DNA of 63,471 nucleotides, the filler included, from Sluysia triapertura (Eukaryota): the NCBI GenBank assembly GCA_046118255.1. It is 4 parts of 4 records of this genome, joined end to end, with 100 filler letters (N's around TTAATTAATTAA, not from the genome) between each part and the next. Parts side by side here need not be neighbours in the genome. Positions count along the whole stretch, not along the records: positions 24,217 to 37,787 come from JBJNIA010032047.1; 3 more parts are not named here. One strand, 5' to 3'. Every line of letters starts with the position of its first letter. Positions within the stretch are counted from its first letter, which is position 1. Under the pieces are notes generated by a model that had not been told where the DNA came from, searched no databases, and worked only from the letters and a program-made list of their open reading frames with translations. The position numbers and the translations under genes are program-made. Positions 16,175 to 60,677 of this stretch are shown piece after piece.

Positions 16175-16753
16175 ATGTTGATTTTTATAATAAAAATAAT
16201 AATAATTCTACTAGAATTATCAATTACAGAAGCTTGTCCAAGTCCGTATACGTTATTGAATAATGTTTGTTATTTGATAATTAATCAAAAAGTTAAATAT
16301 TGCGAAGCTGAAAGACTTTGTGTTGAAAATAAAGGTTCTTTGGTGTGTCCAGATCAATTCAATAAACTTAGATTTACAAATTGGTATTGGAGTGGTGTGA
16401 ATGATTTAATGTTTGAAAGATATAATAGTAAATCTAACTGGATGTGTGTGAATGGTTCAATTGTAAATACAGATAATAATTGGTTTTCGACTGATCCTAA
16501 TAATTACAATAATGTGGAACATTGTGGATCAGTCAAAATAAACAAAATGTATGATTCAAACTGTGATTCATTATATCAACCTTTATGCTACTACGTAGGA
16601 TCAGAACCATATTCTCTGCGACTGGTTCTAAGTCCTATTATTAATTATTATGAAGGATCTTATGACAACTGTTTCGAAGAATTTTCTATAAATTCAAATT
16701 ATGAATGCGCAATAAAGTTTGATTTTAGTATTTACTTTAGCATTTCGTTTTAA
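16175..16753 (+). CDS. Secreted C-type lectin domain protein (3' end may be spliced or degenerate)
   Basis: N-terminal signal peptide; CPSPY..CY; AERLC; WYWSGVND; W.C.NGS; WFSTDPNN..EHC; YDSNC..PLC = long-form CTLD. Possible donor GTTTGA at ~16717. Confidence 0.85.
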   Translation: MLIFIIKIIIILLELSITEACPSPYTLLNNVCYLIINQKVKYCEAERLCVENKGSLVCPDQFNKLRFTNWYWSGVNDLMFERYNSKSNWMCVNGSIVNTDNNWFSTDPNNYNNVEHCGSVKINKMYDSNCDSLYQPLCYYVGSEPYSLRLVLSPIINYYEGSYDNCFEEFSINSNYECAIKFDFSIYFSISF

Positions 16754-19763: not shown

Positions 19764-21815
19764 TTTAAAATATACATAAAATTTAAAAATTTTTAAAAAT
19801 GAATCATCTTTTCACTATTAAAATGCAAACAAAATTACATTTTTTTACATAAATTACGTACACGAAAATAAAAATATAACAATTCATGGAAATAAATGAA
19901 AATAAATTTATGAAATATAATTAAGATAAAACTGAAATAATTATACAAATTTAACAATATCGCTTTAGAAATATTTGGAGATCATTATTTACGAAATGTA
20001 TTTCTTAGAACCACGTTGGAAAAGGTTTAATCAATTTCGCCAAACATAAAATTTATAATTATTTAACTAACGTAAGATTCTTTGATTTAAGTGAATATGT
20101 TCTGCAAAAAATAAAGCAATTCGTAAATATTTACATGATTATAATGTAAATGAAATTTATTTTACGTATAAATCCGTGAGTTCTTTCTGTTTTGTATTAA
20201 TTTGGCAACTATGACTAATAAAAACTGATGATAATTGATCATGTTATCATGAACGAAAATGAAAACCATTTGAATATTTGACAGTCAAATAAACATCTTC
20301 AACAAAGTTCATTTTCATATTGTTCATAGTTAATTTAGATATAACAGAATGTAAACTCACAAATCGAATTAAAATATTTAATTAAAATATTGGATTTTGA
20401 TTATTAGTGGACATATGATGTCAGTGGTAATAATAATAATGACGACAAACGTGAATTATAATATAAAGTAAAAGATCTCTAATATAAGACTGTTTAATGA
20501 ATAAATAGCATTATGAATTACTTAATTGTGAATGAATACATAATGAATAAAATGTAAAAATTGAATAAAATATTGACGAATATAATTCAACTACTTATTA
20601 ATTAACAAAATTTTGATACTTCTATTTCATTTCAAATAATTCATAATACTAAGTTAAATAAATTACAAATTGTTTCATTCATGTTTTATTTAATTAGAGT
20701 TTATTTTAATTCAGATGCTTCGCTTTAGGTCGATGTAAATCGATTTACTTCAGTGATAATTTGAAATTGTGTATCCTCAACCGCTATGTTGGATCTAGAT
20801 TATCGAAAACTTTATTTCAACGCACTACAGATTGGATATGGTACAAAGTGATATTCTAACTTAGTTGACTTAATTAATAATTTTTTCTTAGATGTTTTAC
20901 TTAAATTAACCTTGATATTATATATTCAAAACCATTTGCAATATTTATTGTTGTAATTAAATTTTAGATGTTCAAGTTATGATTTAATTTTTGTGAAATA
21001 AACTTATGTCAAAATAAATTAGATGCATGAGTTTATTAGATACAACAGTGCTTACTACTCGTTCTTAGTCTCTCGCTATAAGCGAAAACAGTTTACAGTG
21101 TAAGTTTCAATAAAACATAACCAATCATATAATAATCTGTAACGATTACATTTCATACATTATTCCATCGAGAGTATAATTTCCATTAGTACAGAAGATG
21201 TATTACTATTTCCTTGACTATAATTCTTTTAATACTTATTCCGTATTCGTACACCAATTCTCTATTATTATACGCTATTTTCATTTATTACATCATTCTT
21301 CTTGTTTTGTTCTTATTCGATACAGAAATTATTACAATTTGTCCATCTTATCTCAGTATATCCAATGTATTTTCAACATAATGTTTCTTAACATCATTTT
21401 CGACACTTTGAATTAAATTTTGTATTTCAGTTTAGGGAGGTGGTATGTAGACACCGGTTTGAAGTGATAATTTTGTGAATATGTAATAAATTTAGGGTTG
21501 TAGTTTTTTGTCTTTCATTTAAAGATTTTGGTTCAAACTCAATAGATGGTTCTAGAAATTTGGTTTCGAATAACTTACAACAATCTGTGACTTCGTAATT
21601 CTTAAGTATCGCGTACTTGGTTAAAGAACTTATATAGTCAATAAAAAGAAAATAGTTCGTATCTTTTGTTCTATCTTACATTTGATTAATCGGTCGAAGT
21701 TTTGATGTAATGTTTGAATTATGAATAGTTATCATAACGTAAAATAGAGAGGTTGGATGAATGAGAGAAGTAGTTACTATTAGTTTTAGCATATTCTAAT
21801 TGACAATTATTAATG

Positions 21816-23188
21816 TTACCACAAATATAAGTTTATGCTTACAATTTTTGTGGAAATTATTACTTTATGTTCCCAGATTATCTCTCTCTGGTACTCTTTA
21901 TAAAAGCGAAATAATCGTATCAATGATAAAAATAAGTTTAAAATAATTTTTTTACCACTAAGAAAAAATAAATAAAATTTAATTAACACATTTTTATTAC
22001 ATACCACAAATTGTTTATGTTTGAAATTTGAACATTCTATTGACTGGAGTTTGTTCTGTACTATACTCTGTTGCATCACACCGATCTTAAGTCTAAATAT
22101 ATTATCTAAAATATAAAATGTTATAAATCCAAAATCAATTCTTACATGCAATACCCAATCGTGAACAAACTTCCTAATAGACTTCCGTAGCTTCATTGAA
22201 CTCTTTGAATAGTTTCGTTAACAATCGATGATGTCGATAAGTGTTGGCCAGACATAAATAAATTAATTATTAAAACTCGAATTATAGTGAAACACTTTAA
22301 CATAACTTCTTTTATCTCTAAGATTGAATATACACTTGATCTCCAATTACGACTTTTCAAAGCATGATTCAATAGATGAAACAAATAAACCAAACTACTC
22401 TTATCTAATAAATCTGAAGAACTTACTAACTCGGGATCGACATATGTGATACTTAGGAGAGTTGATAATTTACTTCTATTTTGCTCACAATGAATCAATG
22501 ATTTTATGATTACAAAGAATTTCTTTTCGAACATTACAATTAAATTAACTTTTTCTTTACGCAATGATGGACTATGGATAGTTGACAGAAGATCTTTTAA
22601 CGCGTTGAAACGTTTCTGGTTAATTTTTCCATTTACATGAACTAACACATCATTTTTGGGGAGTTTATGATATATCTTCAAAAAATGATCGTTTTTGTGC
22701 AGATTTTTGCCGAAGTCATCAGATGCATCAAAGTGATTTAATAAAATGATTATAAACTTTATAATAAAACGAAAAGGATTACTTCGAACATTTATCATAT
22801 TATAACTTTCTAATAGGAAATCAAAATATGATCTTAACCAATTTCTAATTAAATCATTTGGGTTAACTCGTGTCAATGTTTCAATATCTGTTTGTTGTAG
22901 TTTATCACGAGAAGTAAATGTAATTTTATTATTTTGAAATACGCAGCGTTGACTGTACACAAGACATAGAACATTGAAAAGGTCTTCATTATTATAGATT
23001 TCTAAGTCATCTTTAGATAGTTTTAAGTTGTCTGATTAATTAGTTGAGGTTTGATAAGTTTGATTAATTTTCTGTTGAACTCGCTGGACTGGTAATTCTT
23101 CTCGTTCAGGTTTAGTTGGCGAAATTTCGTGGCTAGATAACGATACTAAATGTCGATCAACTTTTGTAGTGTCTAAAATTTCTTCCAT
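21816..23188 (-). pseudogene. Long intronless ORF of unknown family, interrupted by one stop and one frame change
   Basis: ATG at 23188 is in frame with ORF 22193-22960 apart from one TAA at ~23037. ORF 21816-22196 overlaps its stop (ATGA). About 455 codons in total. Confidence 0.5.
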
Positions 23189-24116
23189 GAGGATTAATTG
23201 ATCTTTTCACGATTAGAAATCCAGAAATAATAAGACAATTAAAAATTTTATTTTTTACCAAATTGTTAAAAAAATGTCTAATCTTTTTTGTTGTTTATCT
23301 GAAGATAATTGTTGTGCCAACTTTTCTTTTTATTGGCGATTTTAATTTAACTATTTAATAATTTAACTATCTTTAGTTATGGACCGACGTTTTGGTTGGC
23401 TATCTTGTCACGACTTCCAATTGATTAGACTGAATAATATCAGTCGTGATTGCAACATTTTAATTTTTATGATTAACCATCATCAATATTGACGCATTAA
23501 TAAAGTAGTGGACAGGGTGTCAATGTTGATGATGACGACGACTAAAATGATTTAGATTATGTTTATAAAGATAGCTTGATGATTGACAATAATAATAATA
23601 ACAATAATATTGTTATTATTATATAAAGAATAACTCGCATAAATCTTTCTTTTTAAAATTACACGAGCTTTTTTTTCGAATTCTTTATTCCTTCTAACAT
23701 ATTAAATAAAAAAGAAAAGAAAAACAATTGGTATTATGTGAAGGAACGACGGTAACTTGGTATACTGTGCTTCAGTTATCGTTGTTTCTTCATCATTAAA
23801 GAAATAAATTCTTTAAAACCATATAAAATTTGTTTTGGATTTTTGAAGATAAAAATGATTTAATCTTTAAGTGAAACAAAGGATATTAAAATAAATTCTT
23901 GAGATTTATTAAGGTTTAAAATTAAATACGAGATTCATGCTTTGAATATAATGGTTTGAAAGGCTTGTTAAAAGGTTATGTTTTATTAAATTTTTTAAAA
24001 CAAAATTACAAAATAAATGTTTGCGTATTTACTATGTTGTTGTAAAAAGTTGAGAATGATTATGTGTAGATGAAGTGAGTTTCACTTAGTGTAATTGAGT
24101 CGAGGTTGTAACATAA

Positions 24117-24216
24117 NNNNNNNNNNNNNNNNNNNNNNNNNNNNNNNNNNNNNNNNNNNNTTAATTAATTAANNNNNNNNNNNNNNNNNNNNNNNNNNNN
24201 NNNNNNNNNNNNNNNN
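24117..24216. other. Assembly gap with six-frame stop linker
   Basis: 44 N + TTAATTAATTAA + 44 N. Confidence 0.98.
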
Positions 24217-24217
24217 T

Positions 24218-25864
24218 TTTACCGCATTATATATGCTCTGGACTATAATTTATTTATTTCAAGTTCATAAGAGAATACGTGGTCCCACGAATAATAGAAA
24301 TCTAATCCCATTAATGTTAATTACAATGGTTTCGATAATGCAATGCCAAGAACACTCATTTAAGACAGAGCATTTCGAGTTTTATAATAGTAATACAGAA
24401 GTGAAAATCAGAACATTGAACGAAAATATTCATGTTAAAGTTGTATGCTTAAAAGCTGCTAGACTTAACTTTAGCTCATGGGTAATACACGAAAATTTTA
24501 TTGACAATGAACTACGATATCCAGTTACAATATGTTCAGATATGTTACCCACTGAGGATAGACACATCTTAATAAGATATAGACATTCATCAAAGTATAT
24601 GCATTTCGCGATCAAAGGGATTAGAAAAAATTTAACAATTATAGAAACATTAAAAAATGACCCCGCCTTAGTAATATTAATTGTGGCAGCAATACTTTTT
24701 GTAATAGCTTTAGCAATAGTGGTATTGACTATTATTATGTTTGTCTCAAACAGATGTCGTTATCCATGTCTACCACATAATAACAATAATGACGACGGTG
24801 ATGTGTATACAATGCCACATCAAAATAATTACGCTCCTCCACCTGGGATGCCATTACTTCCACCACCAATTTATGAATATGTTTCGAATAATCATTCACC
24901 ATTTATTTATGGAGATTGGCATATGACGCAACTTTGGTCGACCTTATTAACTTGTCTTTGTCTGTCATGTGTTTCAAATGCATGTATGATAGATTTAAAT
25001 TCAGAAAATCATATATCACAAGATTTAACACCTCGGATATCTATAACTTCAACACAAAGGAATATTATAGTAGCAGTACAGGCAGACAAATTTAAACTAA
25101 TTAATCTTTATTTGAAGTGCTGTTTAATGGGATGGTGTCAGGAAGAATCAACGTTGAACAAAAATATTTTTTATTGGATAATTTCGTGTGACAAATTATT
25201 AGAATTTCAGTTATTCAATATTACTTTAACAATAGAACTTGAACATGATCCTAAATATAATGCAAAAATAATTCTAATACGGCATTATAGGATTAGGACT
25301 CAACCATTTATTTTCAGTCAATCACAAAAAATTATCGAATTTCCTATGGTAATCTATCGATATAATGGTAATATTATACGAATAAACAACCCATTAAATG
25401 ATAATGCATTGATAATAGCATATACATTACGCGAAGTCATAAATTATGGATTAGTATTTCCAAAGGACACTATGCGAATATACGGATATCCATATATTAA
25501 GGTTACGTTTTTTAGTATTTGGATCATACGTGATAACGAGATTAGTAATACGACTGAATTTTGGCCGCTTATTAGGAAATTTGATGTTCAAGTACCTGTT
25601 ATCGATAAACATGAAAATGATATAGAATTAAAGGTAGTAGAAAAAATTAAGAAGAATAACACTACGGATAATTCCTCTTGTCATACGTTCGCAAATATAA
25701 GTAAAATAATTGCAAAACATCCAGCAGTGCTAAAATCTAATATTAATATTATTGTAATAATGAACTACATTTTAATAATAATTCAGTTAGTAACATTACT
25801 TATAAACTTCATAATACCTAAATTCTATTTGTTTATGAGGCGCCAAGCTCATATTTTCATATAA
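24218..25864 (+). CDS. 5'-truncated membrane polyprotein: tandem signal-ectodomain-TM units, env-like position
   Basis: Frame is open from the gap (FTALYMLWTIIYLF..). Signal-like LIPLMLITMVSIMQC; TM ALVILIVAAILFVIALAIVVLTIIMFV; Pro/Tyr tail with PPPIY; second signal-like MTQLWSTLLTCLCLSCVSNA; multiple N-x-S/T sequons; C-terminal TM. At least 543 aa without introns. Confidence 0.8.
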   Translation, partial: FTALYMLWTIIYLFQVHKRIRGPTNNRNLIPLMLITMVSIMQCQEHSFKTEHFEFYNSNTEVKIRTLNENIHVKVVCLKAARLNFSSWVIHENFIDNELRYPVTICSDMLPTEDRHILIRYRHSSKYMHFAIKGIRKNLTIIETLKNDPALVILIVAAILFVIALAIVVLTIIMFVSNRCRYPCLPHNNNNDDGDVYTMPHQNNYAPPPGMPLLPPPIYEYVSNNHSPFIYGDWHMTQLWSTLLTCLCLSCVSNACMIDLNSENHISQDLTPRISITSTQRNIIVAVQADKFKLINLYLKCCLMGWCQEESTLNKNIFYWIISCDKLLEFQLFNITLTIELEHDPKYNAKIILIRHYRIRTQPFIFSQSQKIIEFPMVIYRYNGNIIRINNPLNDNALIIAYTLREVINYGLVFPKDTMRIYGYPYIKVTFFSIWIIRDNEISNTTEFWPLIRKFDVQVPVIDKHENDIELKVVEKIKKNNTTDNSSCHTFANISKIIAKHPAVLKSNINIIVIMNYILIIIQLVTLLINFIIPKFYLFMRRQAHIFI

Positions 25865-26217
25865 GGATTATAAGTATTATAAATGTTACATAGTTGACCA
25901 TGTGTAATAGTACCCCTATTCATGTTGGGTCATATGAAATATTTATATAATAATAAATGGTTGCAACATTATAAATACTGTAAAATACTGTAAATTAAAT
26001 ATATTAGGTTAGGTTTAATGTAAAACTAGTAAGTATAGAATTAATAGAAATAAGATTAAGTTTAAATTATATAAGTAAAGTGTTTTTGACTGTATGTGAT
26101 GGTCACCATCCATTTCGAGTCATACACGAATTAAAATTGTTACTTAAAATATATTATGTATATATTTCTATTTAAATTATTACTTTATTATATAATTTTA
26201 TTTTTTTTAGTTAAATC

Positions 26218-26679
26218 ATGTCATATTCAACCTGTGCCATTTGCCTGAAATCTATTCGAAACTATTACGCTCGTACCTTTCCTTGTTTTCATAGGTTTCA
26301 CTTTTTCTGTCTATATGATCTATTTAACTCTTCCCCAACTCCTTTACCTAATTGTCCACTTTGTAGGGTCACGATCATGGAATGCAGTATTTTCTATAAA
26401 AAGAAATTTCGAAGAACTTACACTTTTTCGGTTAAATATATCACCGATAATGCAGAAGAGCCCGGAATTGATATTTATCAACCGGCACCTATAGTTAAGA
26501 AAAGAAGGTTTAGTAGAAATGGGTGGGTTAGACCTCCCCCGAATTTTCCAAAGAATCTGACTAAATCTCAGAAAAGAAATAGAAGGAGACGCCAACTTAA
26601 GCATTTTTATAAAAAACAAGAAGAAAATTTGCCGAGACCTCTAAAACCTTTTAATCCTTTTTTGAAGAGGAGATTATAA
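26218..26679 (+). CDS. RING-H2 zinc finger protein with a basic (NLS-like) C-terminus; putative E3 ligase
   Basis: CAIC..CFH.FH..C..CPLCR (C3H2C3); KKRR and KRNRRRR clusters. Polypyrimidine-AG at 26201-26210, just before the ATG. Confidence 0.88.
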   Translation: MSYSTCAICLKSIRNYYARTFPCFHRFHFFCLYDLFNSSPTPLPNCPLCRVTIMECSIFYKKKFRRTYTFSVKYITDNAEEPGIDIYQPAPIVKKRRFSRNGWVRPPPNFPKNLTKSQKRNRRRRQLKHFYKKQEENLPRPLKPFNPFLKRRL

Positions 26680-26795
26680 ACTTCCTAAATTACGTATTTT
26701 TATTATACAAACTTAAAATTCACAATCATATTAAAATAGCTTACTTATTATTATTTTTATGTACTGTTTTATTTTTCTTTTGTCTCATTTAACAG

Positions 26796-28094
26796 ATGCA
26801 GGCGAAGATATTAAACCAACAGAAGAACTTCTACGTGTATATCGACAGGTACTGCCACGAGAGTATCACTCCTGCTTTCTTTGGCGACTCTGTTTCGACA
26901 CCTAATTCCTTGAAATCCGAGTTAAATATTAATCTAGCCACGCACATATTTTCTTTGAAACCGGAATCCTCTTTTATTACTTTAGACGGTCTCAGTCAGG
27001 TCCCTGAGACTATCGAATCCCTATATTTGGTTGTGGCTAGGGGAATAGTTAAGGTGACTTTAGTTGATACCGGTGCTCCTTATTATGTTCGTGTCCATAG
27101 CTTCTCATCTTTACATTTGACTAAATTGCATAAGAAATGTACTGTACTGATAGAGGCCACCGAATATCCGACGTCTGTAGCACTGCTTTTTCCTTTACCT
27201 CTGTCTACATTCAAGTCTTTCCTTCCTAACCTCTATAAAGACGACATCGCTAATTTGGAACGCTGGAGAAAGGGGACTTCATTTACTCATGTCCCTCCTA
27301 TGTTGATTTGTGATGAGGAACGTCTAGTTTTCATTTCTTACTCATATGCATTCGATTTTAAAGATCATCCCCATATTACACAACTTTCTTGCACTCCATA
27401 CTCAAGACAGTTTCATACGAACATTAACATTAAACCCCGCCTTCGTATAAGAAATTTCCTCAGAGATATTCAAGAGATGAAAGATTCCGATATCTCTGAG
27501 GCTAAGGATATAGATGACGTACGTCCTTTTCTTTTGGGTCACCTGCATGATAAGATCATGGTGTCGTTGAACCCATGTCTTATAAATCTACCTTTCGGTT
27601 GGTTTAAGGGAGTGATTAACCTGACTAATCACAACCTTCTGTCTTATACTACGAACGATATAATCCAAAAGGGACGTCAGACATTTCGTTTATTATATCC
27701 TATTCCGCCGCGAATGACGTGTATGAGGATGGCCTCCGAATTGGTACCTTTACTTAATCTCATTCGTGAAAAGGACACTCTTTTTATTTCTAATTGTTCA
27801 ACCCCTCCTTCTCTTTTTTCTCTTCCATCTACTTCTACACTTTTCGATACTGTCGTGGCACTTCCAACGATCAAATCTTTAACTCCACCACCATCATCAT
27901 CCTCTGCTACAAAACAATCGTTATCGAAATCACCGCCGGTAATGTCATCACAAACTACGACAGCAGCTTCGCCACTACCATCATCGTTTTCCAGTACAAA
28001 AACTACACATAAGACTTCATCCATGAGTATTCTACAACGAAAAAGACCGTATTACTGGGACAACAATGATAACATTGATTTAGATGATTGTTGA
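26796..28094 (+). CDS. 432-aa hypothetical protein; possible degenerate cupin/JmjC-like fold; S/T/P-rich tail; NLS
   Basis: Long intact intronless ORF with higher GC. LYLVVARGIVKVTLVD and SLNPCLINLPFGWFKGVINL resemble cupin/JmjC strands. RKRP near the C-terminus. The acceptor ..TTTAACAG abuts the ATG. Confidence 0.8.
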   Translation: MQAKILNQQKNFYVYIDRYCHESITPAFFGDSVSTPNSLKSELNINLATHIFSLKPESSFITLDGLSQVPETIESLYLVVARGIVKVTLVDTGAPYYVRVHSFSSLHLTKLHKKCTVLIEATEYPTSVALLFPLPLSTFKSFLPNLYKDDIANLERWRKGTSFTHVPPMLICDEERLVFISYSYAFDFKDHPHITQLSCTPYSRQFHTNINIKPRLRIRNFLRDIQEMKDSDISEAKDIDDVRPFLLGHLHDKIMVSLNPCLINLPFGWFKGVINLTNHNLLSYTTNDIIQKGRQTFRLLYPIPPRMTCMRMASELVPLLNLIREKDTLFISNCSTPPSLFSLPSTSTLFDTVVALPTIKSLTPPPSSSSATKQSLSKSPPVMSSQTTTAASPLPSSFSSTKTTHKTSSMSILQRKRPYYWDNNDNIDLDDC

Positions 28095-28207
28095 TTTTGT
28101 ATTTATTATTTTTATATATATTTTCATCAATTTTGTCTTATTATAACATTATTATTATTCAATTTTATGTTATTTATCGTTTGATCTGATAATTTTTTTT
28201 GTTTCGA

Positions 28208-28250
28208 GATTCGAGACGAATCTTCCCTAATGGGGAAGTAAATGTAAATA
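28208..28250 (+). mobile_element. Candidate Ty3/gypsy-type hairpin + polypurine tract + LTR start (TGT at 28243)
   Basis: GATTCGAGACGAATCTTCCCTAATGGGGAAGTAAA|TGTAAATA resembles the 3' junction of gypsy elements (..TTCG.GACGAA.T...GGGG.AG.A|TGTAA). LTR end not defined. Confidence 0.5.
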
Positions 28251-28499
28251 TTAAAAAACAAATTAAAAGATTTAATTAGACATTTAATTATAAAGTACAA
28301 ATTTAATGAAACTAGATAATTATTTTAATTATTTTAATAAAGATAAAATTTTGTTACAAAGTATACTTTTTAATTAATAAAGATAAAATTTACAAAAATA
28401 AATTATAATTTTAGATAATTAATAGATAAAAAATTAATTAAGAAAAATAAACCTTTAATTTTAAGTAATCTAAATCTTTTAATTTATCAACAATAGAAA

Positions 28500-28854
28500 T
28501 TATATATAAATAGCTGAAAAATGGCTAAAAGCACACACAAAAAATTTATAAATCTTTTTAAATTCTTTGGAACAAACTTTCGTTGAGTGAATTAAAATTG
28601 TTGTATTGGAACCTTGGGAGATTATTGCACTGAAAAAATATTGGATCGATATTATTAGAAAGGAGATTTTTTGAATCGAGAATTTTTGGATTTGGATCGA
28701 TATTATTAGAAAGGAGATTTTTTGAATCGAGATTTTTTTAGATTTGGATCGGTATTATTTGAAAGAAGAGTTTTGGATCGAAACTAAATCGGATAAAAAT
28801 TGTTGTCTTTTGGAAAAAGAACTATTGTACCATTAGTAAGCTATTTATATATAA
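28500..28854. repeat. 16-bp inverted repeat (TTATATATAAATAGCT) enclosing a 51-bp tandem repeat
   Basis: 28500-28515 is the reverse complement of 28839-28854. Tandem units start at 28641 and 28692, with a partial third at ~28744. Confidence 0.85.
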
Positions 28855-29342
28855 GATTCAAACAATAATAAAATTGTTTTTAAATCCTACTTAAACTTAT
28901 ATTGTTTTCATACTCAAGTATTCCACTTGAGTTAAACTCATTTCAAAATTTATTGTAAACATTAGGAAAATATCCTAAATAGTTTTGACTTATTATTATT
29001 AATACTGTTGAACATTTTTATATCGCGTTTGATTTATTTTTATACTTATAAAATTTGTGACTATAGCTATTGTAGTAAATAAAATTTCATAGGATACTAC
29101 GAGTATCAGTCGTTTATTATTTATTCATTGAAGTACGTAAATTAGATTTGTTTGGAAATTCATATTACAACTTGATAAAGATAAAAGACCCTCCGTTTAA
29201 GATTTAAGGCATTCTTTTCGTAGCAATTTTTCATTAACCTATAATTAAGTCTTCCGTCGGAAATAAATCTTAAATTATAGGCGAACCCAATAAGGACTAA
29301 AATCATAATTGTTAAGTTATTAAATAAAGAAAACTTGAACAT

Positions 29343-29921
29343 ATGGAATTAATGCAAAAGTTTTTTGATTTAACATATGATTTAAAGAAAACAAATAATG
29401 CATTTGAAGCTTTTAATGGAAAATATACTGAAATTCATGAACCCGAAAATTTTTATGTTAAATAATAAATTATTTACAGTTGAGAATTCAGTCGACACTG
29501 AATAAAATACATAAAGAATTAAAGAATCAAACTAAAAATGATAATCGTTTTAAAATAATGAACGTAGTAATCAGAAAAGCTGACGATTCAATTTACAGAA
29601 CATTAACTAAGTATGTGAAATATATTTACGATTTAGATCGCTATAAAACCGCACTTTGTACATAAGGTTCGACGGATTCAGGTCAATGCATCAAATATGG
29701 TCGAAAGTGCGTATATCCGCATGGGATTTTTGATTGTCTACTTCACCAGAATTTTTGATGACTATGGCGAACTTATTTCTAACTTATTGTCAACCTTATA
29801 TGCAACACCAAATACGTCAAACTCATCTATTAGTTGCTACCTATTCACAACAAACCAACAAGATCGTGTTTTGTACAATCACGAATATTCTGATTCCATT
29901 GACAATTTTACGCTAAAGTGA
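29343..29921 (+). pseudogene. Hypothetical gene or pseudogene with possible micro-introns
   Basis: MELMQKFF..EPENFY joins ORF 29480 via a 23-nt GT..CAG segment, then needs a frame change into ORF 29697-29921. No domain recognised. Confidence 0.25.
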
Positions 29922-32459
29922 AATCATTACATTTTAATATTTTCATTTTATGATTATGATTATATCTTTTATTTTTGTTCAGGAAAATTTGTGAAAATAT
30001 GACCGTGGCATCTTTAAGTACAAATAAACATTTTTATTTATCGTATCCCTATCATATTAATCAAAATTTTCATTTTTCTTCAATTTTTATCATCAATATA
30101 TGCTGTGTCTTATATTATGAGTTTCTTAATGAAAACGTATACATCTAATAAATTAATTTTATCATTTAAATTCAAAGCTAAAAATAAAGCCCCAAAATCC
30201 TTACACACACGCATAAAACATCATCTTAAACACATATCAAAACGTACCATAACACCTCATCAATTCCCATATCTTCCTAACCAAACATTAACTTCTAAAA
30301 TAGAAATTCATAAAGTTTTTAAATAAGTTTAAACTATTTCTTTCATTTAATAACACTATTAAACTTTAACTTTATTGACACTTCAGAACCGATAACAAGT
30401 TCAAACGTTAACTTTAAACAGATTTCAAGTTTAGAACAAAAATTTGAAAACCAAGAATTTTAAAAAAAGATGGAAATTTCAGGAAGAATGTAAGAATCTG
30501 CTTGTTTTTTTTATAATTTATATAATTTGGACAGATTATTTAAATTATGCTAAAGTTACGCTTGTTTAAATAATATGTTCAATTTATTTAAATATATTTA
30601 TTACAATTTTTATGTTTCTGAAAAATTTAAAAATTTTTTAAATGTTAATAAAGAATATTCAAAATTCATAATACGTACTATTAATGCACATAAATCTGTA
30701 TATTATCAAGAAGTTACCAATCTGAGACTTATATGCCTTTAACTGTTTATAAAAGTAGAAATTGTTTAAGAGATAGTTCGCGTGATGTTGGTAAATTATT
30801 TTTGCAATCAAGGGTGTCATATTTTTTTATTATCAAGTATCCTAGAAGAATTACAGTGAAAATACGGACGGGATTCTACTAGGTGGTGCTATATTACCAC
30901 CATGATAACATATTCTAATAATGTCATTGATGTTAGTCTAGTTTCTCGTTATATCTGGCAATTATTTTGTAATTCAAACGCTCGTCGGTGTTAATTCATA
31001 ATGAAGTAAAACGTTTATGTGATTCGAGAATATTTTCTATAAGATATTAATTATTATCTTGAAACTTGGATCACCTATCTTTTTAATGCATTTAATGGGT
31101 GATCTAGGTGTATATTGACCACAAGTACTTAATTTTTCCAGGTGTAATATTGCTAAATAAAAATATTAAAATTTTTTCAAGAGATATTTTAAACTTTCTG
31201 AGTTAGGTGATGAAATATTTATATCAAATGGTTGTATGAGTAAATAAATGAGGGCAGTACAAGTTCTCGCTTAGCATACGGAAGGGTTCTATTTCTATTT
31301 TTTGAGAAAATGCATACTATCAGTGAAGTAGTGTTTTATTGTATTTGTTGATAAATTTAAGTTATCATTAGACAGACGATTATTTTGTCGAAAAGAACTA
31401 AAATGCGCAAAGAAAAAAAGGGCTCGTGTTAATAGCTTTTTTAATTTCTGTAATAATATACCTTTTCAGATATCGTAAACTTAATTATGGATGTGAAATA
31501 TATTTTTAGTTAAAGTGTTTCATAAATACATCATGTTTGGTCTTTATTTCGTGATTAACGTTGATAATTTTAGAATTAAAGTGCCTTGAAGCATAGTATG
31601 TAAGAATAATTGATATTACAATTCTAACAAAATATAAATAATTAAAATTAAATAAAACCACAATTTCCAATAAACAATCAACACTAAAAATTTTGTGGTT
31701 AAGATATTAGTGTGTCCATGTTTAAGTCGAGGCATCGCATTATTATCTGAATAAACATGTTTAAAAGTGAATTTTAAAAGCTATAAATTATCTTACATTT
31801 CAATTTCAATTATTTGTCATTTTAAAATGTAGAAATGCCCTGACAAAACTAATAGTTAATGCAACACAGCCTTACTTCTTATTAAACACATAAAAAAACC
31901 TTTCTGAATCGCTGGAAGAAATATCTTTTGTTTGTCTTCGTAGATCTTTAGATTTATACGAAATGGAACTTTTAGTTCAATTACTATATCAAAAATATGC
32001 TGAAATTCAAGACATAGGTTCTAATCATCAAGTAATGCTACCTTCTACTAAGGGATCATGTAAAATATACACTCAACAGAAACACTTATTAATAATCTTT
32101 TATCAACATCCTCAAACAAACCTTTGTATTTTTCCAAAGAGTCGCAAATAGTACACAAAGATTTACGAATATTTTGAACAAGATGCAGATGTTTGCAAAT
32201 CCAACATTTTACCCTTCTATCGAAATACATTCTAAAATCTTTTCTCTGTGTTTGTTACTTATTTTCATTTCATATCACATTGAATTACTTCATTAGTTTA
32301 TACGTGGGTAACAAATACGAAATGGGTATTTTATTTTTAACAAATCAACTAGTTTTCGGAAGCAGAGAAATATTGCATGTCTTATGCGTAGTTATGCATA
32401 GTCTCCCTTAATAATATGCTTAGAAATCTTAATTATAAAACTAAAAAAATATTTCTTAC

Positions 32460-35400
32460 CGATAAACCAAAGCCAAAATGTTCTGTAAAGTAGCAATATC
32501 CAAGCTACAATAATCGGCACTATTGCTATTGACACTGCTTTTGTCACCAATATTATCAACATCATCATCACCAGCAGAACCACCTGACAACACCTTTTTT
32601 CTTGATTCTATGGCCAACATCTCATTTTGAATAGCTTGTTTACAAAGTGCTGTGGCCACTTCGTAACGACCATTATTTGAGTATTCAGTTATCAAAGAAT
32701 GCAACGTTTTCAAATGATCTGGTAATTCGTAGTTATAGTTTGTGCTTGGATTTGAACTTGAATTTGTGTTACATGTAGTAGCAGTGTTAGAGGTTTGGTC
32801 ATTTGTGGAAGATGATTGATGTGAACCATGTCGATTTCCTGTAAATTCAATTTTAACTTGAAATGAATGTGAAGAAAATTTGCGATTCTGCGAATAAATT
32901 TAATGAATTAGAACAATAGCACCGTATGCATCCACAATGATAGCCAATAAAGAAAATTTATTGAATTTTCGAAAAATATATTTAGTTACCAACACTTCAA
33001 ATATAAAATAAGGTTATTAAAGCATTCACTTGCACAATGTAACTTGCTTAAATGTGGAAAATTCTGGTTTTAATGTCATATTGAAAAAGATTTAAAAGAT
33101 GTAAATCCTGTTGTTTTTTAAATTTTCGCCATAATTGCCTGACAGTGAAAATACCACTACGAATAGATGGTTAGAATCAATGTCGTATAGTGTGATTTTA
33201 AAATGTTTAGAGTACGTAAGATTTCGGAATTTCAAGCTGAAACATTGTACGATGTACTACATAATGCCGAATGTCCGCTTGTATGGGTTAATATTGAAAA
33301 TTTGGTAATGTCGATCAAAACGGCTATTATCCATTGAAGACACTATTCGAGTTTAGAAATTGTGATTTCGTGATATAATGAAAATATCATATTTGGTGAT
33401 TCTGTATTTCATAAACATGATATGGAACCAGTTAATATCTCGTTAGAGAAAGTAACATCAGAAAAGAATTCATTATATATTAAATAATCAAGATTTTCTT
33501 CTATTTTATTGCATGAGTTATTTTGTATAGAACTGTTAGAATGATGTAGTTTTGAATATGTTATTAATTACGAAGGTGTTGTTGCATAATGATGTCGCTT
33601 TTCTAAGGACTTATGACACGCTTTTCAAAACCATAAGTTTGTATCAATGTAATAAGCCTGTGATAATAACCAAAAAAAGCACTTTAAATACCATTTTAAC
33701 AGTTTAACATTTTAAGCATTTTAAAAATATGGTAAATTGTTGTTAGTAAATTGACTATTTAGGAAACGTTTTCAACGAATAATAGCATCCATTAAAATAA
33801 GAAAAAGCTTCTGAGGCGACATCTTAGGCAAAACTCATTAAAATAGATCTACCATGTCAAATCCGTAAATACTTATTTTATCTAATACAACACATTGTTT
33901 TTAGTTGCGTGTTTGATGTATTTGGGGGTATCTAAATGTACCCGTCACCATAGTAATAAAAATATTACTCTATTATAATTTACAACATGTGTATATCAGT
34001 ACAGTAAGCAGAAATTGTACTTATCAATCTATATTTAATGATATATCATTTAGCCTACACATAATTGTTCAGATGTATAATTTTTTGAAAAGGATTATCT
34101 TTTGGTGGCGAAACGAAGAATGTTTAACAAATATTATCAATGTAAAGTACATAAAATCGTAGATATGAATGAATTGTCATATAAAATGAAACATAAATTT
34201 GTGTTTTAGGGAAAATGTTGCAAACGCTTAAAAGACATTTTTGTTTGTACCTGCCTAAGTAGAGAAATAAATATGCAATGAAAATTTTCCACACTGATAT
34301 GCTGATAAAAGAGCATGTAATATAAACATTAAAGTTTTGTTCATAAAATTACATTTTCGCACTGTTTTTAATAAAAATATATAAATGCAGCCTTAGTTGC
34401 ACAACACATGGAAGAATAATCTCACTTTGGTGGAGGTAAATCAGAATCTATATTAATGTTAAACTTATATTTATACAAGGTTGAAAAATGTATTTTAAAT
34501 TTATATTAGTTACAATTATAATTATTATAACCTGAAGCATTTTGGGAGCGCCGCAAATCACAATATGTTTCTTCCGTTAATTGACCCGATATCGTAGACT
34601 CTGATAAATTAATCGAATCTGCCAATTGATTACTTGAATAACTTTGTGTCATTGGTTCGTCATATTTTATCAATTCCTTAAGATATAATTTTTATAAACG
34701 GTAAAAAAGTATAAAAATTACTTATAATTAAAGTTAAAAATATCATTTGTTTATATTTTGATTATTTTTTCGATATATATTGTTACTTACAATAAATCTT
34801 TCAGAATTTATTGACATTATTCTTAATAACTTCTACATACACGTAAAAGGCATCATCTAAAAAGTTAAACTTTATACGCCAACGAAGTACATAAACAAAA
34901 GATTTTGTTTCTAATTACAGATAAATTCGGCATTTTTAATAATTTTTAAACATTTTACAAGATATAAAACCTTTAATGATTAAAATAATAAAAATCTAAT
35001 TTCCTAGCACTTATTTTATTTTAAACTATTTTTAATTTTGTAACATGATTAATGAATAAATCAACATTGAAAATAAAGTTAAAAATGCACAAAAACATTT
35101 TACATTCAAATATATTTATTCTAATCACTATTTCGTACCACAACTTTTAATAACTATTTAACTATATTAAATTTTTCTATTCAACATCTAAAATTAATAA
35201 CAGTATGTCAAAAGTTAAAATAAATTTGATAAAATCGAAGTTTCATCAAGCATTAAATTAAAATGTTTGAATCGATTTTAATTGGAATGGAAAATACCGT
35301 TTAGTTGTATATTCCAACTTATTCGCGTTTTGAACATATTTTTTTCATTTTGTTAATTAAATACTGATTATCCTTATACCAGGTCGTACAAAAAATAAAA

Positions 35401-35977
35401 AACTTCAACTGAGCCCAAAGAACGAAAATAATTTTCACTTTAGTTATTACTTAATAAAGTTGCTTTATATTTGAAAACCTTCAGAAACCACCTACTTTTG
35501 CTTTATATTTAGGTTATATATTACCACAATATCTTTCATTTGTGAACTTACCAAGTTTAAACTAAATGTGTAACTTACCAATTTCAACTTATAATCTTTA
35601 ATTAGATTATCTAAATCAATATTTCGTTCTTCAGCTTCACTTAAGCGATTCTGTGAAGCCGTAATCTCCTCGCGAAGCCAAGAATTTTCTTCAGACAATC
35701 GCATAATCATTGAATTTAATTTTATTGTATTTGCCTCAATGACATCCAAATGATCCATAAATGTCAAGATCATCTCAGCATCCTCAATACCCAATAAAAC
35801 TTTTTCTAATGGATGTTTAATAGTTTCATCAATACTATCAATATTGACTGAATTGTAATTACATTTATCGAAAGGATTAAAATCTACACCAATTTTATCT
35901 AGGCAAGTAGATCGTAACGATTTCAGTGCAACCAGAGATGATTTAGTGATTCCAATTATTTCGTTGGATTTCTTCAT
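32460..35977 (-). CDS. KLC: Kinesin light chain, exons 1-3 (35977-35579, 34676-34532, 32838-32460); later TPR exons not found
   Basis: Heptad region LGIEDAEM..HLDVIEA..KL..MIMRLSEENSWLREEITASQNRL and TPR1 [47 protein letters not shown] match KLC consensus. GT-AG introns have consistent phases (0, 1). Confidence 0.9.
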
Positions 35978-37096
35978 TAAGCTCAATAAAACATAATGTA
36001 AGTATAAAATCAAAAATAAATGTTGAGATCAAATTAAAATCCTTCAAAATAATAAGTTAAAATATAAAATAAAAGATAAATTATATATAGTTACTTCGTG
36101 AGATTTTATATTCCATATACACTAAATTTGTGTAAATAAATTAACACTTATTATATAACAATTTGAATATAAAATATTCAAAGAAAAAACTTATAAAAGA
36201 TAGTATTTATTATTTTTTATTAGTATTTTTAATTTTAATGAAAATAAATATTTTTCAATTATTATAAAATAAATAAATTTATTAAAACAAACTGAAACCA
36301 ATTTATTTAAACTAATTTGTCAACATGAATTATTGCTCATATGTAAAATATGGTTATATAATTAAAATCAACATTAATATAAAGTACTTTAAAAAGTTTT
36401 TTGCATATGTAAATGAATGTAGTTGATTTTTTACAATTTTTATATATAAACAAATTATTAAATAAATGTAATGTAAATTTATCGCATTATTTGTGATAAT
36501 TATATTTATCATTCAAATATTTTGAAATGTCTAATTCTTTACATTATTAATAATAGTAATTGGTGACTCATAGAAGCGTTTTAATTACGTATGTAAATTT
36601 TAATAAAGCAAGCAAAGACTAACACTTAAACCAAAAGCTTTTACCATTTCTAAAAATACCAATTTTGATATAAATTTTAAATTTCTTACCATTTATAAAT
36701 TTATAATTAATTTACGTAACTACTTAATTAAAATATTGAAACTTCAACAATATAAGAATACCCTGTAAACAATTTTTATTAACGATTGCATAAATTAATC
36801 CAAATATTTTCGAAATGTGTAAAATTACAATTGCTATTGCAAAAAATTATAAAATTTAAAAAATTAATACATTATTTAAAAATCATAACTGATTTTTATA
36901 AATACACTTGTTTTTATCAAAGTGATATTTAAATATCAAAATTTTTAGATTTGAAATAATCTTTTTGAAATAAATGTTTTTTTATTTATACAACATACTT
37001 TGACCCAGTTTTTGATAATCTAATATAAAAAAATTGTATAAAATTATGCATATTAAACAAAATTATTAATCATTAAATTACTCTTATTAAATTGAA

Positions 37097-37393
37097 ATGC
37101 ATGATGAATGTATGACTGTACAATCACTGTTAGCAAAAACGATTTCAATAATCGAATCAGATCCACGTATACCAACAGGTGTTCGTAAATATTACTTAAA
37201 CAATTTGAAACAACTCAATTTAGATGATATTCATTCAATTAATAATTATTATATACTCAACGAAATTTTAAGTCATCAATATAGAATTCTGTTACCAAAT
37301 CGAGCAAGAAATAATCTTTATTTATTGCGTTATCAAATTGGTTTAACATTTAAAATTAAAGCTTCCGATCAACGATCAGGACCTCGGACATAA
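37097..37393 (+). CDS. 98-aa hypothetical protein, divergently oriented from KLC
   Basis: ATG-initiated ORF with protein-like composition in very AT-rich flanks; no domain recognised. Confidence 0.35.
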   Translation: MHDECMTVQSLLAKTISIIESDPRIPTGVRKYYLNNLKQLNLDDIHSINNYYILNEILSHQYRILLPNRARNNLYLLRYQIGLTFKIKASDQRSGPRT

Positions 37394-37787
37394 TCGAAAT
37401 TAATATAAACAAAATCAAATCGAAGACTTTCACATATTTCAAACAATAATGGAAATGTTTCTATGTACTTAAAAGAGTATGTATAATATAAATTTTCCAA
37501 AAAGCATAATTTTTAATAAAATATAAAAATATATTTTGATATTATCATTTTTTGAAATAGATTATTTTTTCCATTAAATTATTACTTTTTAACTTCTGAG
37601 CTATTAAAAGTGTATGTTTGAGCTTTATAAATCAATGTCTGTTAAAAGAAATATAATGCTGTGTAAATTTTTATACGAGGCGAAATTATAGGAACATAGT
37701 GTTGGGATTCGTGAAGGGTAAAGGTAGATATAAAGGTTTAAGACTCAGGATAACATAATAAGGTGAACGTTATTGAGGAATTGAGAT

Positions 37788-37887
37788 NNNNNNNNNNNNN
37801 NNNNNNNNNNNNNNNNNNNNNNNNNNNNNNNTTAATTAATTAANNNNNNNNNNNNNNNNNNNNNNNNNNNNNNNNNNNNNNNNNNNN
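37788..37887. other. Assembly gap with six-frame stop linker
   Basis: 44 N + TTAATTAATTAA + 44 N. Confidence 0.98.
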
Positions 37888-50239: not shown

Positions 50240-50339
50240 NNNNNNNNNNNNNNNNNNNNNNNNNNNNNNNNNNNNNNNNNNNNTTAATTAATTAANNNNN
50301 NNNNNNNNNNNNNNNNNNNNNNNNNNNNNNNNNNNNNNN
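50240..50339. other. Assembly gap with six-frame stop linker
   Basis: 44 N + TTAATTAATTAA + 44 N. Confidence 0.98.
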
Positions 50340-59820: not shown

Positions 59821-60677
59821 TGTAGGGAATTCACATTAAAATTTCAACATTTCATCATATAAAAACATTTCTTACATACATAGAACATTAAATAAACTAC
59901 TTAACTCATTTAAAAACAGTCATTGTACATAATTATCATGAACTTTAGTTATTGTTATTATAAATCCAATTGTATTAAAATATATAATTATTATGATTAT
60001 TGATATATAATATGATTGTCATGATTATCATATAATAATTTCTACAATAATAATACAACATCATTGTTTTAAAATATATAATAATTGCATTATTGTTATC
60101 ATTATTATTCCTTTCAATTTTCCATGGATTGTTTACCAATACAATGATAATCATCCAGCTGTTTTATTAATAATGGAAATACATTTCAAAAACTATTTTA
60201 ATTAAAATATTGGTTGCCTTTCATAATACTTGATTTCGTGATCAATTTATGCAACCAATTACCAGAAGAATGTCGAATTTAGCACAGAAGTAAATTGATA
60301 AGGATCACGCATATATACCAACTCAAACAAATAAAAGAATAAGATGAATTGCAAAATTGAAAGGAATAATAATGATAACAATGTAATTATTATATATTTT
60401 AAAACAATGATGTTGATATTGTATTATTATTGTAGGAATTATTATATGAAATTATTAAGAATTATTATATGATAATCATGATAATCATGTTATATAACAA
60501 TAATCATAATTATTATATATTTCATTACAATTGGATTTATAATAATAACTGTAGTTCATGATAATTATGTACAATGACTGTTTGTTTTTAAATGAGTTAA
60601 TTAGTTTATTTAATGTTCTGTATGTGTAAATGGTTTTATGTGATGAAATGTTGAAATTTTGATGTGAATTCCCTACA
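59821..60677. mobile_element. Non-autonomous element with ~300-bp terminal inverted repeats and TGT..ACA ends (Ginger/foldback-like)
   Basis: 59821-~60121 is the diverged reverse complement of ~60353-60677 (TGTAGGGAATTCACAT.. / ..ATGTGAATTCCCTACA). Flanks TAAGT / TAAGC are a possible 5-bp TSD. Confidence 0.85.

Follow-up and report, generated by a model that had tools for sequence, protein, structure and literature searches.

An orphan membrane-precursor ORF of 548 codons (24218..25864, plus strand) in the window, the whole 63,471-nucleotide stretch of Sluysia triapertura DNA analysed here, raises two connected questions: whether its membrane units are released from one precursor, and what kind of genetic element carries it. 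The preliminary description had read the ORF as a polyprotein of tandem, mutually similar type I membrane units separated by internal signal peptides, from which signal peptidase would release several paralogous surface proteins, as in viral glycoprotein precursors. Our analysis partly confirms the observation and partly supports the interpretation. The best explanation, to which we assign a probability of about 0.55, is a Ty3/gypsy-type LTR retrotransposon, present in high copy number in an AT-rich invertebrate, whose 3' accessory cassette comprises three genes, the precursor ORF being the first of them that is visible.

Frame and membrane layout of the precursor ORF

The precursor ORF is a real, selected frame. 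The chance of such an open frame at local composition is about 4e-21. Among the listed differences between copies, 15 out of 21 are synonymous, compared with 5.0 expected (0 out of 200,000 simulations were as high), the share being five out of six in unit 1 and 10 out of 15 in unit 2; the other two plus-strand frames acquire 4 and 1 stops. None of the 12 listed indels falls inside the precursor ORF, and thus the fused frame appears common to the copies; coding DNA as a whole holds one of the 12, three nucleotides long (P 9e-5).

At its 5' end, the frame is open to an artificial contig spacer of 100 nt (24117..24216, no strand), made up of two blocks of 44 N that flank a 12-mer carrying stop codons in every frame, and present in three copies in the window, the identical ones being at 37788 and 50240. 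Because of this spacer, sequence upstream of 24117 need not adjoin the precursor ORF; the contig there carries an unrelated set of minus-strand ORFs with neither Pfam nor gypsy pol matches. The first methionine, Met6, is at 24233. The first segment, H0 (24218..24259, plus strand, as are all features below), comprises 12–14 visible hydrophobic residues and a basic linker with four Lys/Arg, and is either the last part of an upstream transmembrane segment (TM) or the beginning of a long signal. The claim that a TM ends at the gap is thus not established, as only these 12–14 residues are visible and Met6 may be the start, while the rest of the described layout, that is, two TMs, ectodomains of 105 and 254 aa, a 58-aa tail, and a signal at 24923, stands.

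By hydropathy, H1 (24302..24346, aa 29–43) is a short signal-like core, with plausible cleavage at a non-canonical site near aa 42–44. It is followed by the beta-rich ectodomain D1 of 105 aa, with two Cys and two sequons (24347..24661), by TM1 (24662..24748, aa 149–177 according to hydropathy) with basic and Cys residues behind it, and by a predicted cytosolic Pro/Tyr-rich tail of 58 aa (24749..24922) containing a PPxY motif (aa 216–219, 24863–24874), Yxx-hydrophobic motifs, and one further sequon. The second unit starts with H2 (24923..24982), a 20-aa signal peptide from Met236 with a small-x-small site (aa 253–255), so that the (–3,–1) rule, well established for signal peptidase sites, predicts cleavage before Cys256. 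The second ectodomain (24983..25744) has 254 aa, six Cys, and six of the nine sequons of the precursor, and possibly consists of two beta units of ~113 aa, D2 and D3; hydropathy places TM2 behind it (25745..25819, aa ~510–534), followed by a 14-aa basic tail.

The internal hydrophobic segments do look like signals rather than anchors, as the preliminary description proposed. The cores of H1 (aa 29–40) and H2 (aa 241–252) are too short or too polar for a stable 19-residue TM, their summed Hessa values being +9.7 and +2.3, respectively, compared with –6.6 and –2.1 for the two TMs, and in the case of H2 the cleavage motif is canonical. The closest that any 12-mer of the ectodomains gets to the H2 core is more than one unit away.

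The same features of H2 allow for another reading, with the same retroelement but with unit 2 as effectively a gene of its own. Its translation would start at Met236 after splicing, by internal initiation, or through leaky scanning, and tandem capture or duplication would have left the two units in one frame. Such separate translation is a live alternative because H2 starts at a Met with no basic residues before it: it is a complete signal of the N-terminal type lacking a basic n-region, and no Lys or Arg occurs in the stretch of 21 residues up to its start (aa 221–241), a feature atypical of internal signals. The tail varies among copies, with a joint at 24769–24859 and a loose end before 24887. 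Loose ends flank the 40 nt before the Met236 ATG (seven contigs differ before 24887 and three after 24927), a pattern that would suit a border between modules or a conserved cis element; judged by eye, the letters after 24927 in the variants, a 0.68-agreement mixture of three contigs, run into an in-frame stop within ~10 codons. On the other hand, chance alone places a Met within eight positions of the core in 21% of cases, the common copies have no listed indel or stop between the units, and by eye the sequence just 5' of Met236 offers no good splice acceptor. Overall, we consider an independent unit 2 unlikely, though worth keeping in view.

The claimed mutual similarity of the units is not established. 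The original D1–D2 alignment was recovered with score 41, but its significance is marginal (p 0.017–0.022 against shuffles, 0.064 against shuffles of 6-residue blocks, and 0.02–0.05 with phmmer). D3, the second half of the 254-aa ectodomain, yields p 0.003 against D1, with the reversed-D1 control equal to D1 (47 vs. 47), and the similarity of D2 and D3 is not significant. Taken over D1–D2 and D1–D3, local p-values range from 0.003 to 0.06, and the global sum-of-pairs p is 0.05–0.22. Overall, the internal repeat is marginal, with p ~0.01–0.06.

Searches with the precursor returned no relatives. The whole precursor matched 0 Pfam families, with single domains giving only weak matches below the curated cut-offs, and none of 1.84 billion representative proteins; in the 5.8-billion-protein search, limited to lengths 301–959, none of the 3,792 candidates was related. 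PDB sequences gave no match with the precursor and one chance match with a three-domain profile, the best PHROGs match had E 0.27, none of seven IMG/VR pattern matches was confirmed, and the Atlas search yielded nothing usable. Alignment-free AlphaFold gave no confident model (pLDDT 37 for the precursor, where the TM1 helix is the best part at 70–80), and fold searches on this model were uninformative. A CUB ectodomain, suggested by eye, found no support: there was no Pfam CUB match at E 10, and a purely bacterial CUB profile of 22 domains (from 23 loci, one of them empty) gave p 0.07–0.30 and hhalign E 0.54.

These negative results bear on the possibility that the ORF encodes a single multipass protein that was acquired from the host and stays uncleaved, H1 and H2 being re-entrant segments or anchors in it. 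The order of a TM, Cys, a Pro-rich part, and PPxY is reminiscent of host adaptors, the GC3 of the precursor ORF (0.24) is at the level of host ORFs (0.20–0.26), and the cleavage of H1 and H2 is a prediction from hydropathy. Both segments, however, are energetically poor as anchors, and no host family was matched in Pfam, among the representatives, or in the Atlas; we regard this alternative as very improbable.

They also bear on a longer Env polyprotein, of which the visible ORF would be the tail. Its missing 5' part would encode a fusogen (F-, gB-, or class II-type) anchored by H0, and both visible units would be partner glycoproteins released from it. Such a precursor would be compatible with the processing proposed below. 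The frame is open to the spacer, H0 with its four basic residues looks like a TM end, 143 records extend over one or the other end of the matched stretch, and, according to the accessible text of PMC13524379, many metazoans carry Ty3/gypsy elements with an Env of the F or gB type. The open frame at the gap is nevertheless uninformative, since only five codons precede Met6; that same text does not mention further glycoprotein units behind Env; and no fusogen sequence is seen in the visible part. Features of F- or gB-type Env are absent from it (no furin consensus R-x-K/R-R and no Pfam, PDB, or representative match), and the second unit has no Gc homology in Pfam, the representatives, or PDB. 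This agrees with the initial remarks that a furin site is lacking, the sole RxxR being at aa 355, and that the protein may not be a fusogen, as the visible units, with ectodomains of 105 and 254 aa, fit a size too small for known fusogens. We consider a hidden upstream fusogen a rather unlikely extension.

The high-copy repeat and its 3' end

The precursor ORF belongs to a diverged high-copy repeat. Depth and copy data come from one public run of the same species, possibly the source of the window itself. Over 24217–27840, the summed contig depth, which is not a copy number, is 17,498–73,551, compared with 25–27 on a single-copy host stretch recovered as one 7,050-bp contig with 0 differences; one single contig has a depth of 2,843, ~110 times the single-copy level. 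The 7,812 matching records include 816 with at least 99% identity and 5,256 below 95%. Depth and divergence make this a multicopy family, presumably a dispersed one.

The repeat ends in a manner typical for LTR elements, which supports the virus-like reading of the preliminary description. Two hairpins and a chromovirus-like Ty3/gypsy polypurine tract occupy 28198..28242 (fold z –3.2, pattern match at 28210–28238), the tract itself (28229–28242) lying directly before a TGT that forms an LTR-type start at 28243, 4 nt past the motif. The probable 3' LTR, starting with TGTAAATA, spans 28243..29478; its right end is uncertain, as the candidate at 29478 is an 8-bp inverted match, with 0.32 such matches expected by chance. 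It includes 51-bp tandem repeats at 28641–28781. Depth falls after 28293, yet is raised until ~29650, and in the presumed U3 it is 577–1,994, far under that of the internal region, whereas an LTR is expected to have at least the internal depth; hence, the LTR reading needs subfamily divergence as an explanation.

In metagenomes, the 3'-end pattern was found at eight loci representing five independent families. In three families, gypsy pol, integrase, or chromodomain sequence ends just upstream of the motif, a fourth carries a gag-protease ORF downstream of it, and the sequence of the fifth is too short for an assignment; thus, the motif sits at Ty3/gypsy 3' ends in four out of five families. 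TGT follows 3–4 nt past the motif in seven out of eight loci, and a model built from these loci ranks 28209–28236 first in the window (12.9 bits, with 3.5 for the next match). The pattern was partly fitted to the window, and all eight metagenome matches share one base that is absent here, so the test is partly circular. A stricter form of the gypsy-end pattern did not match the window, the relaxed one had 0 loci in IMG/VR, Rfam gave 0 matches over 21000–38000 and the eight loci, and no description of the motif was found in the literature searched (for LTR end motifs, see the accessible part of PMC3601003).

Neither gypsy pol and gag queries (tblastn) nor a search for a second LTR produced a match in the window. 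We infer that the element is cut at the 24117..24216 spacer, and the expected gag-pol and 5' LTR are missing from the window.

With pol unseen, the repeat might be a mobile element of a different kind, such as a Polinton, an endogenous DNA virus, or a Helitron-like element ending in a hairpin, or else a cluster of amplified host genes that abuts a gypsy end. The 3' end of Helitrons carries a GC-rich hairpin, and the one near the depth fall would suit it; large DNA viruses commonly hold RING and small glycoprotein genes. But no CTRR end follows the hairpin, IMG/VR contains no relatives, the motif, the purine tract, and the TGT spacing all agree with gypsy ends, and deletion-bearing contigs join 27821 or 27901 to 28202–28208, which ties the 432-aa ORF described below to the 3' motif in other copies. 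We find a different element or a host cluster quite unlikely, and the LTR-element identity of the repeat likely.

Downstream ORFs and the proposed cassette

Two more ORFs follow within the repeat. The first (26218..26679) encodes a RING-finger protein of 153 aa with a basic C-terminal half (Pfam zf-RING_2, E 1.2e-8); a T-tract and AG lie just 5' of its ATG, and none of 23 candidates was a relative at E 1e-5. The second (26796..28094, 432 aa), with a pyrimidine tract and CAG directly 5' of the ATG, has eight out of eight listed differences synonymous. Its product comprises a beta-sandwich or cupin-like part (aa 46–135), a DEDDh-like part (~aa 180–325), and a Ser/Thr-rich tail. A DEDDh profile of 14 bacterial domains scores 5.0 bits over 53 ungapped columns (aa 207–259), a value reached by 0 out of 800 shuffles and two out of 800 block shuffles; hhalign gives a weak E of 0.12, and Pfam has no DEDDh match. 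In a register set by eye, Asp187 is kept, Lys189 occupies the position of the expected Glu, there is no Asp after Asn259, and His and Asp of the catalytic motif are absent near aa 308–312, which suggests that the domain lacks most catalytic residues and is probably inactive.

Further searches with the 432-aa ORF gave Atlas matches at 0.84–0.89, no more than a lead towards DEDDh, together with weak fold matches of its model (pLDDT 33), matches at E 8 in phages, and nothing useful among PDB sequences; none of 5,084 protein candidates and none of 46 metagenome matches was confirmed as a relative. A D-T-G-A motif in it resembles that of retropepsins; this reading was dropped because there is no Pfam protease match and, by eye, no second motif.

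The cassette would then consist of the membrane precursor, the RING protein, and the beta-sandwich and pseudo-DEDDh protein, expressed via spliced subgenomic RNAs, as may be proposed because acceptor-like sites precede both downstream ATGs. At the ER, H1 would translocate D1, TM1 would halt the transfer, leaving the PPxY tail cytosolic, and H2 would reopen translocation, with signal peptidase cutting before Cys256. The products would be unit 1 (D1, TM1, and the tail, retaining H2 at its C-terminus) and unit 2 (the 254-aa ectodomain and TM2), both glycoproteins that might serve attachment, budding, or the modulation of the host at membranes rather than form the fusion machine. Via the PPxY tail, ESCRT and Nedd4-type ligases may be brought in to sort particles or host proteins at membranes, and the RING and pseudo-nuclease proteins may counter host defence via ubiquitination and RNA binding. 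Given the LTR-element identity, we hold processing by signal peptidase to be fairly probable; the odds for any exact role of the proteins are lower.

A bolder version is improbable: in a retrovirus-like invertebrate lineage, signal peptidase would free a series of small, paralogous glycoproteins with beta-sandwich folds from one ORF, and these would form a surface system unlike F, gB, Gc, or FAST, of a type not encountered in the literature searched. The PPxY tail of unit 1 would act as the late domain in budding, a pseudo-exonuclease that shields RNA and the RING protein would complete the trio, and the element would spread from cell to cell by an envelope route without a known fusogen fold. 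The arenavirus trio of glycoprotein precursor, Z, and nucleoprotein would be a convergent parallel to such a cassette.

Comparison with known systems and implications

As far as the accessible text of the cited papers goes, each of the systems compared shares some features with the cassette. The bdelloid rotifer LTR elements Juno, Vesta, and TelKA carry diverse ORF3s in the interval from pol to the 3' LTR, typically expressed from spliced messages; some encode DEDD-type exonucleases, and others are small TM ORFs lacking env homology (PMC5408684). The likeness lies in the extra 3' ORFs, DEDD-type and TM-bearing; however, the bdelloid families typically have one ORF3 each, intact DEDDy domains, TM ORFs of 210–230 aa, and low copy numbers (PMC5408684), whereas here there are three ORFs, a tandem precursor of at least 548 aa, a RING protein, a degenerate DEDDh-like domain, and high copy number.

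The belpaoviruses Atlas virus and Cer13 have a phlebovirus-like Gn–Gc Env precursor, and Atlas virus resembles our case in encoding two tandem type I glycoproteins in a retroelement precursor, there split by cellular proteases (PMC9094657). By hydropathy, the Gn–Gc-type order (signal, ectodomain, TM, tail, signal, ectodomain, TM) is present here as well. The Gc of Atlas virus, a class II fusogen with 498 aa (the ectodomain construct has ~440 aa), is homologous to proteins of Phenuiviridae and lies with a Gn-like region of 421 aa in a single Gag-Pol-Env frame (PMC9094657), in contrast to the ectodomains of 105 and 254 aa with two and six Cys, respectively, the lack of homology, and the gypsy-type 3' end observed here.

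Metazoan errantiviruses are likewise Ty3/gypsy-type elements with a membrane-protein ORF, found across animal phyla, but their Env is one large trimeric fusogen of the F or gB type (PMC13524379), while the visible part here has two small units with no such domain. The planarian giant gypsy element Burro shares thousands of copies and RING-related and ubiquitin/apoptosis domains, and has env homology; there, RING-related and other domains are inside an ORF1 of ~4,900 aa or in an upstream accessory ORF (PMC6431247), whereas here separate ORFs lie beside the 3' LTR, the comparison being by description, not by sequence. Finally, FAST-like proteins and sORF2 of the MDG1 group are small accessory TM proteins of env-less LTR elements, serving cell-to-cell spread; they have ~100–200 aa, one TM, and a short ectodomain bearing an amphipathic motif, the sORF2s mostly with a predicted myristoylation motif (PMC11952523), in contrast to the signal peptides, sequon-bearing ectodomains, and tandem precursor seen here.

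No description of the cassette or of a retroelement precursor of small tandem glycoproteins was found in the literature searched, a scope outside which lie Repbase, Dfam, and most subscription journals, and the cassette may already be annotated there or elsewhere. Its probable place in a retrovirus-like element hints at an envelope- or accessory-type protein of a kind not described in that literature. In the accessible parts of the papers compared, envelope-type genes of invertebrate LTR elements fall into a few virus-borrowed classes, namely, F, gB, Gn–Gc, and FAST-like (PMC13524379; PMC9094657; PMC11952523). If our reading is true, this list would gain a membrane precursor of two units, an orphan maintained by purifying selection and accompanied by a RING protein and a pseudo-exonuclease, and an invertebrate element would possess an accessory cassette in the style of complex retroviruses. 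Since a single genome has many natural copies, an alignment for structure prediction can be built from the family itself, which makes the question directly testable. Even if the proteins are merely host modulators, surface and ubiquitin-pathway effectors would still be an unusual transposon cargo.

Layout of the precursor ORF

The precursor ORF (24218..25864, plus strand) is a 548-codon frame, with a chance probability of about 4e-21, that is open from the very first bases of contig 24217-37787 to a stop at 25864. Hydropathy gives two strong transmembrane segments, TM1 (aa 149-177) and TM2 (about aa 510-534), and two short hydrophobic cores (aa 29-40 and 241-252), within segments H1 and H2, respectively. 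On a membrane-insertion scale, the TMs reach -6.6 and -2.1 in their best 19-mers and the short cores +9.7 and +2.3; since these insertion scores are poor and no ectodomain 12-mer rivals the cores, the latter look like signal h-regions. Hydropathy supports the signal/TM layout proposed in the preliminary description for both TMs and both cores. H2 begins at Met236, and a canonical small-x-small site precedes Cys256, whereas the H1 candidate site is poorer. As also proposed there, the ORF contains no furin consensus. Basic residues follow H0, the first hydrophobic segment (four), TM1 (two), and TM2 (three). Of the nine sequons, eight are on the predicted lumenal side; this is consistent with the layout but uninformative, as the lumen makes up about two-thirds of the protein.

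By established ER biology, H1 would start translocation of the precursor, TM1 would halt it, leaving the tail with its PPxY motif (aa 216-219) on the cytosolic side, and H2 would restart it, with a cut before Cys256. The products would be a twice-anchored unit 1 (ectodomain D1, TM1, tail, and the retained H2) and a type I unit 2, a logic that may be likened to that of the phlebovirus Gn–Gc precursor. With 105 and 254 aa, the ectodomains have neither the size nor the Cys content of F, gB, or Gc fusogens, so the units may be attachment, budding or host-modulating proteins. PPxY motifs recruit Nedd4 and ESCRT, and the tail would do the same.

The ectodomains had also been described as mutually similar. 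An alignment suggests that the 254-aa ectodomain may comprise two units of ~113 aa (D2 and D3). Smith–Waterman alignment recovers the D1–D2 match, but the match is weak (p about 0.02 against shuffles, 0.06 against block shuffles). D1–D3 gives p 0.003, yet reversed D1 reaches an equal score; D2–D3 similarity is not significant, and leave-one-out profiles of the units give p 0.012-0.074. Paralogy of the units is possible on this comparison.

No sequence relatives of the precursor were found in Pfam, PHROGs, 1.84 billion representatives, the Atlas, PDB sequences, or IMG/VR, nor in a search of 5.8 billion proteins (lengths 301-959). The single-sequence structure model is poor (pLDDT 37), and the fold searches run with it are uninformative. 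A resemblance to CUB domains seen by eye was unsupported by a profile from 22 CUB domains, all bacterial. An uncleaved captured host protein seems improbable.

Copies and selection

Contigs of one public sequencing run were aligned to contig 24217-37787 at 82% likeness. The run matches the host part exactly (0 differences over 7,050 bp, depth about 25) and hence comes from the same species; it is possibly the window's own source and therefore provides no independent support. The precursor ORF sits within a high-copy repeat: summed depth over 24217-27840 is 17,498-73,551, which does not equal copy number, and 5,256 of 7,812 records are under 95% alike. One contig by itself reaches a depth of 2,843, which would imply that roughly a hundred copies follow its path.

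The best-supported differences among copies (40 of 698) include 21 in the precursor ORF, 16 of them at third positions; 15 of the 21 are synonymous, where 5.0 would be expected, and this holds in both units; no stop arises from any of them. In the downstream 432-aa ORF, all eight are synonymous. The 12 best-supported indels (of 67) comprise none in the precursor ORF, four in the 353-nt spacer behind it, seven in the 3′ non-coding part, and one, of 3 nt, in the 432-aa ORF. Given the synonymous excess and the absence of these 12 indels from the ORF, the fused frame is thus prevalent in copies that resemble one another, and it is under selection. The precursor tail is variable among copies. Loose ends of other copies, seven contigs just before 24887 and three (0.68 agreement) just after 24927, flank a 40-nt stretch ahead of Met236, which may be a cis element under conservation or mark the edge of a module. 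This stretch and the methionine opening H2 would suit translation of unit 2 by itself from Met236, while the selected fused frame favors a single precursor; we consider such separate initiation unlikely.

Downstream genes and the 3′ end

Downstream of the precursor ORF lie a RING ORF (26218..26679, plus strand; 153 aa, E 1.2e-8) and, 3′ of it, the 432-aa orphan ORF (26796..28094, plus strand; G+C higher, 0.40), both ATGs being preceded by acceptor-like tracts. For the latter, Pfam gives no match, and the Atlas suggests, as a lead only, DEDDh exonucleases, arenavirus nucleoprotein, and Exuperantia (0.84-0.89). When 14 bacterial RNase_T-family domains serve as a profile, 53 ungapped columns align (aa 207-259), with a score above that of each of 800 shuffles and of all but 2 of 800 block shuffles; hhalign against this family is weak (E 0.12), and, by eye, one catalytic Asp is left. 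A low-quality model folds residues 46-135 into a beta-sandwich, for which Foldseek gives matches of cupin type at E above 0.001. The RING and pseudo-nuclease genes would serve counter-defence.

Behind two hairpins at 28198-28238 (z -3.2) come a stretch of purines and TGTAAATA at 28243, a combination that we take to be the end of chromovirus-type Ty3/gypsy elements. A strict pattern for such ends has no match in the window; a relaxed one, fitted to the window sequence, matches once in the window, in none of 100 shuffles, nowhere in IMG/VR, and at eight metagenome loci forming five families. In three families, a gypsy RT–RNase H–integrase, an integrase–chromodomain or a degraded integrase ends just upstream of the motif; one has a gag–protease ORF downstream, and the remaining one, with only 228 nt of upstream sequence, was left unassigned. 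The motif-to-TGT spacing is 3-4 nt in seven of the eight loci and 4 nt in the window. A model from the metagenome loci alone places this site ahead of all others in the window (12.9 vs. 3.5 bits for the runner-up); all eight loci carry one base absent from the window motif. The motif test is circular in part, but chance would hardly produce a joint match in motif, purine run, and spacing. Deletion joints in other copies (27821 and 27901 to 28202-28208) tie the cassette to this end.

The candidate LTR contains 51-bp tandem repeats; an 8-bp inverted match, of which chance would give 0.32, puts its possible end at 29478. Against an LTR stand the depth in the presumed U3, far below that of the element interior, and the lack of gag, pol, and a second LTR within the window. 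The lack of pol would fit another kind of element, which, given the motif agreement, we regard as decidedly unlikely. A multi-copy gene piece at 29470-30050 (depth ~440, diverged contigs), presumably CCCH zinc-finger-like, has an in-frame stop and a possible ~26-nt intron.

Contig setting and known systems

The window is eukaryotic DNA (G+C 25%). Its identical 100-nt spacers (24117-24216, 37788-37887, 50240-50339; each with two runs of 44 N around a 12-mer that gives stops in six frames) are artificial contig joins, so adjacency across them carries no evidential weight. The contig of the precursor ORF also bears what we take to be a kinesin light chain gene with introns (35977 to about 32456, minus strand) and, at its right end, a second high-copy repeat (37354-37787; summed depth 10,948, 104 contigs at one site) without similarity to the element's 3′ region. 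Elsewhere there are an intronless CBP/p300-like ORF (3657-5474; 605 aa, bromodomain, PHD, and HAT domains), possibly a reduced paralogue; an intronless ORF for a secreted C-type lectin (16175-16753), flanked by an imperfect 47-nt inverted repeat; an apparently spliced gene on the contig before the spacer (21427-23206, minus strand), whose 280-aa and 133-aa frames have no match in Pfam and PHROGs; Tc5 and SWIM transposase pieces; presumably Tau-like repeats; and a foldback or MITE-like nested inverted repeat (59821-60677; ~850 bp, arms 79-94% complementary). The CBP/p300-like, lectin, transposase, kinesin light chain, and Tau-like sequences together point to an animal host, probably an invertebrate.

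Among systems already described, bdelloid LTR elements carry further ORFs on the 3′ side, some for DEDDy exonucleases and others for small TM proteins (PMC5408684), and planarian Burro elements carry RING-related and env domains (PMC6431247). Atlas virus has a Gn–Gc precursor (PMC9094657), F- and gB-type Env are widespread among metazoan gypsy elements (PMC13524379), and MDG1 elements have a FAST-like sORF2 (PMC11952523). The precursor matches the layout logic of Gn–Gc precursors but not their size or homology, and its visible part has none of the defining features of F, gB, or FAST proteins. It could be the tail of a longer Env whose fusogen was lost at the spacer, as the open 5′ end allows; this reading, compatible with the same processing, seems unlikely. 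No description of this cassette was found in the literature covered, which left out repeat databases, most subscription journals, and supplements.

A selected ORF lies within a high-copy repeat having a gypsy-type 3′ end. The feature is real. Its best classification is as the accessory cassette of an LTR retrotransposon, one that includes an orphan membrane precursor of tandem layout. The whole reading, a processed precursor with an attachment, budding or host-modulating role and counter-defence neighbors in a gypsy-type element, is slightly favored (probability about 0.55); a new envelope class of small glycoproteins freed by signal peptidase is doubtful. Used by itself, the 29-31 nt hairpin-plus-purine motif finds the 3′ ends of Ty3/gypsy elements in metagenomes (four of five families), and it may be a marker for pol-less elements.
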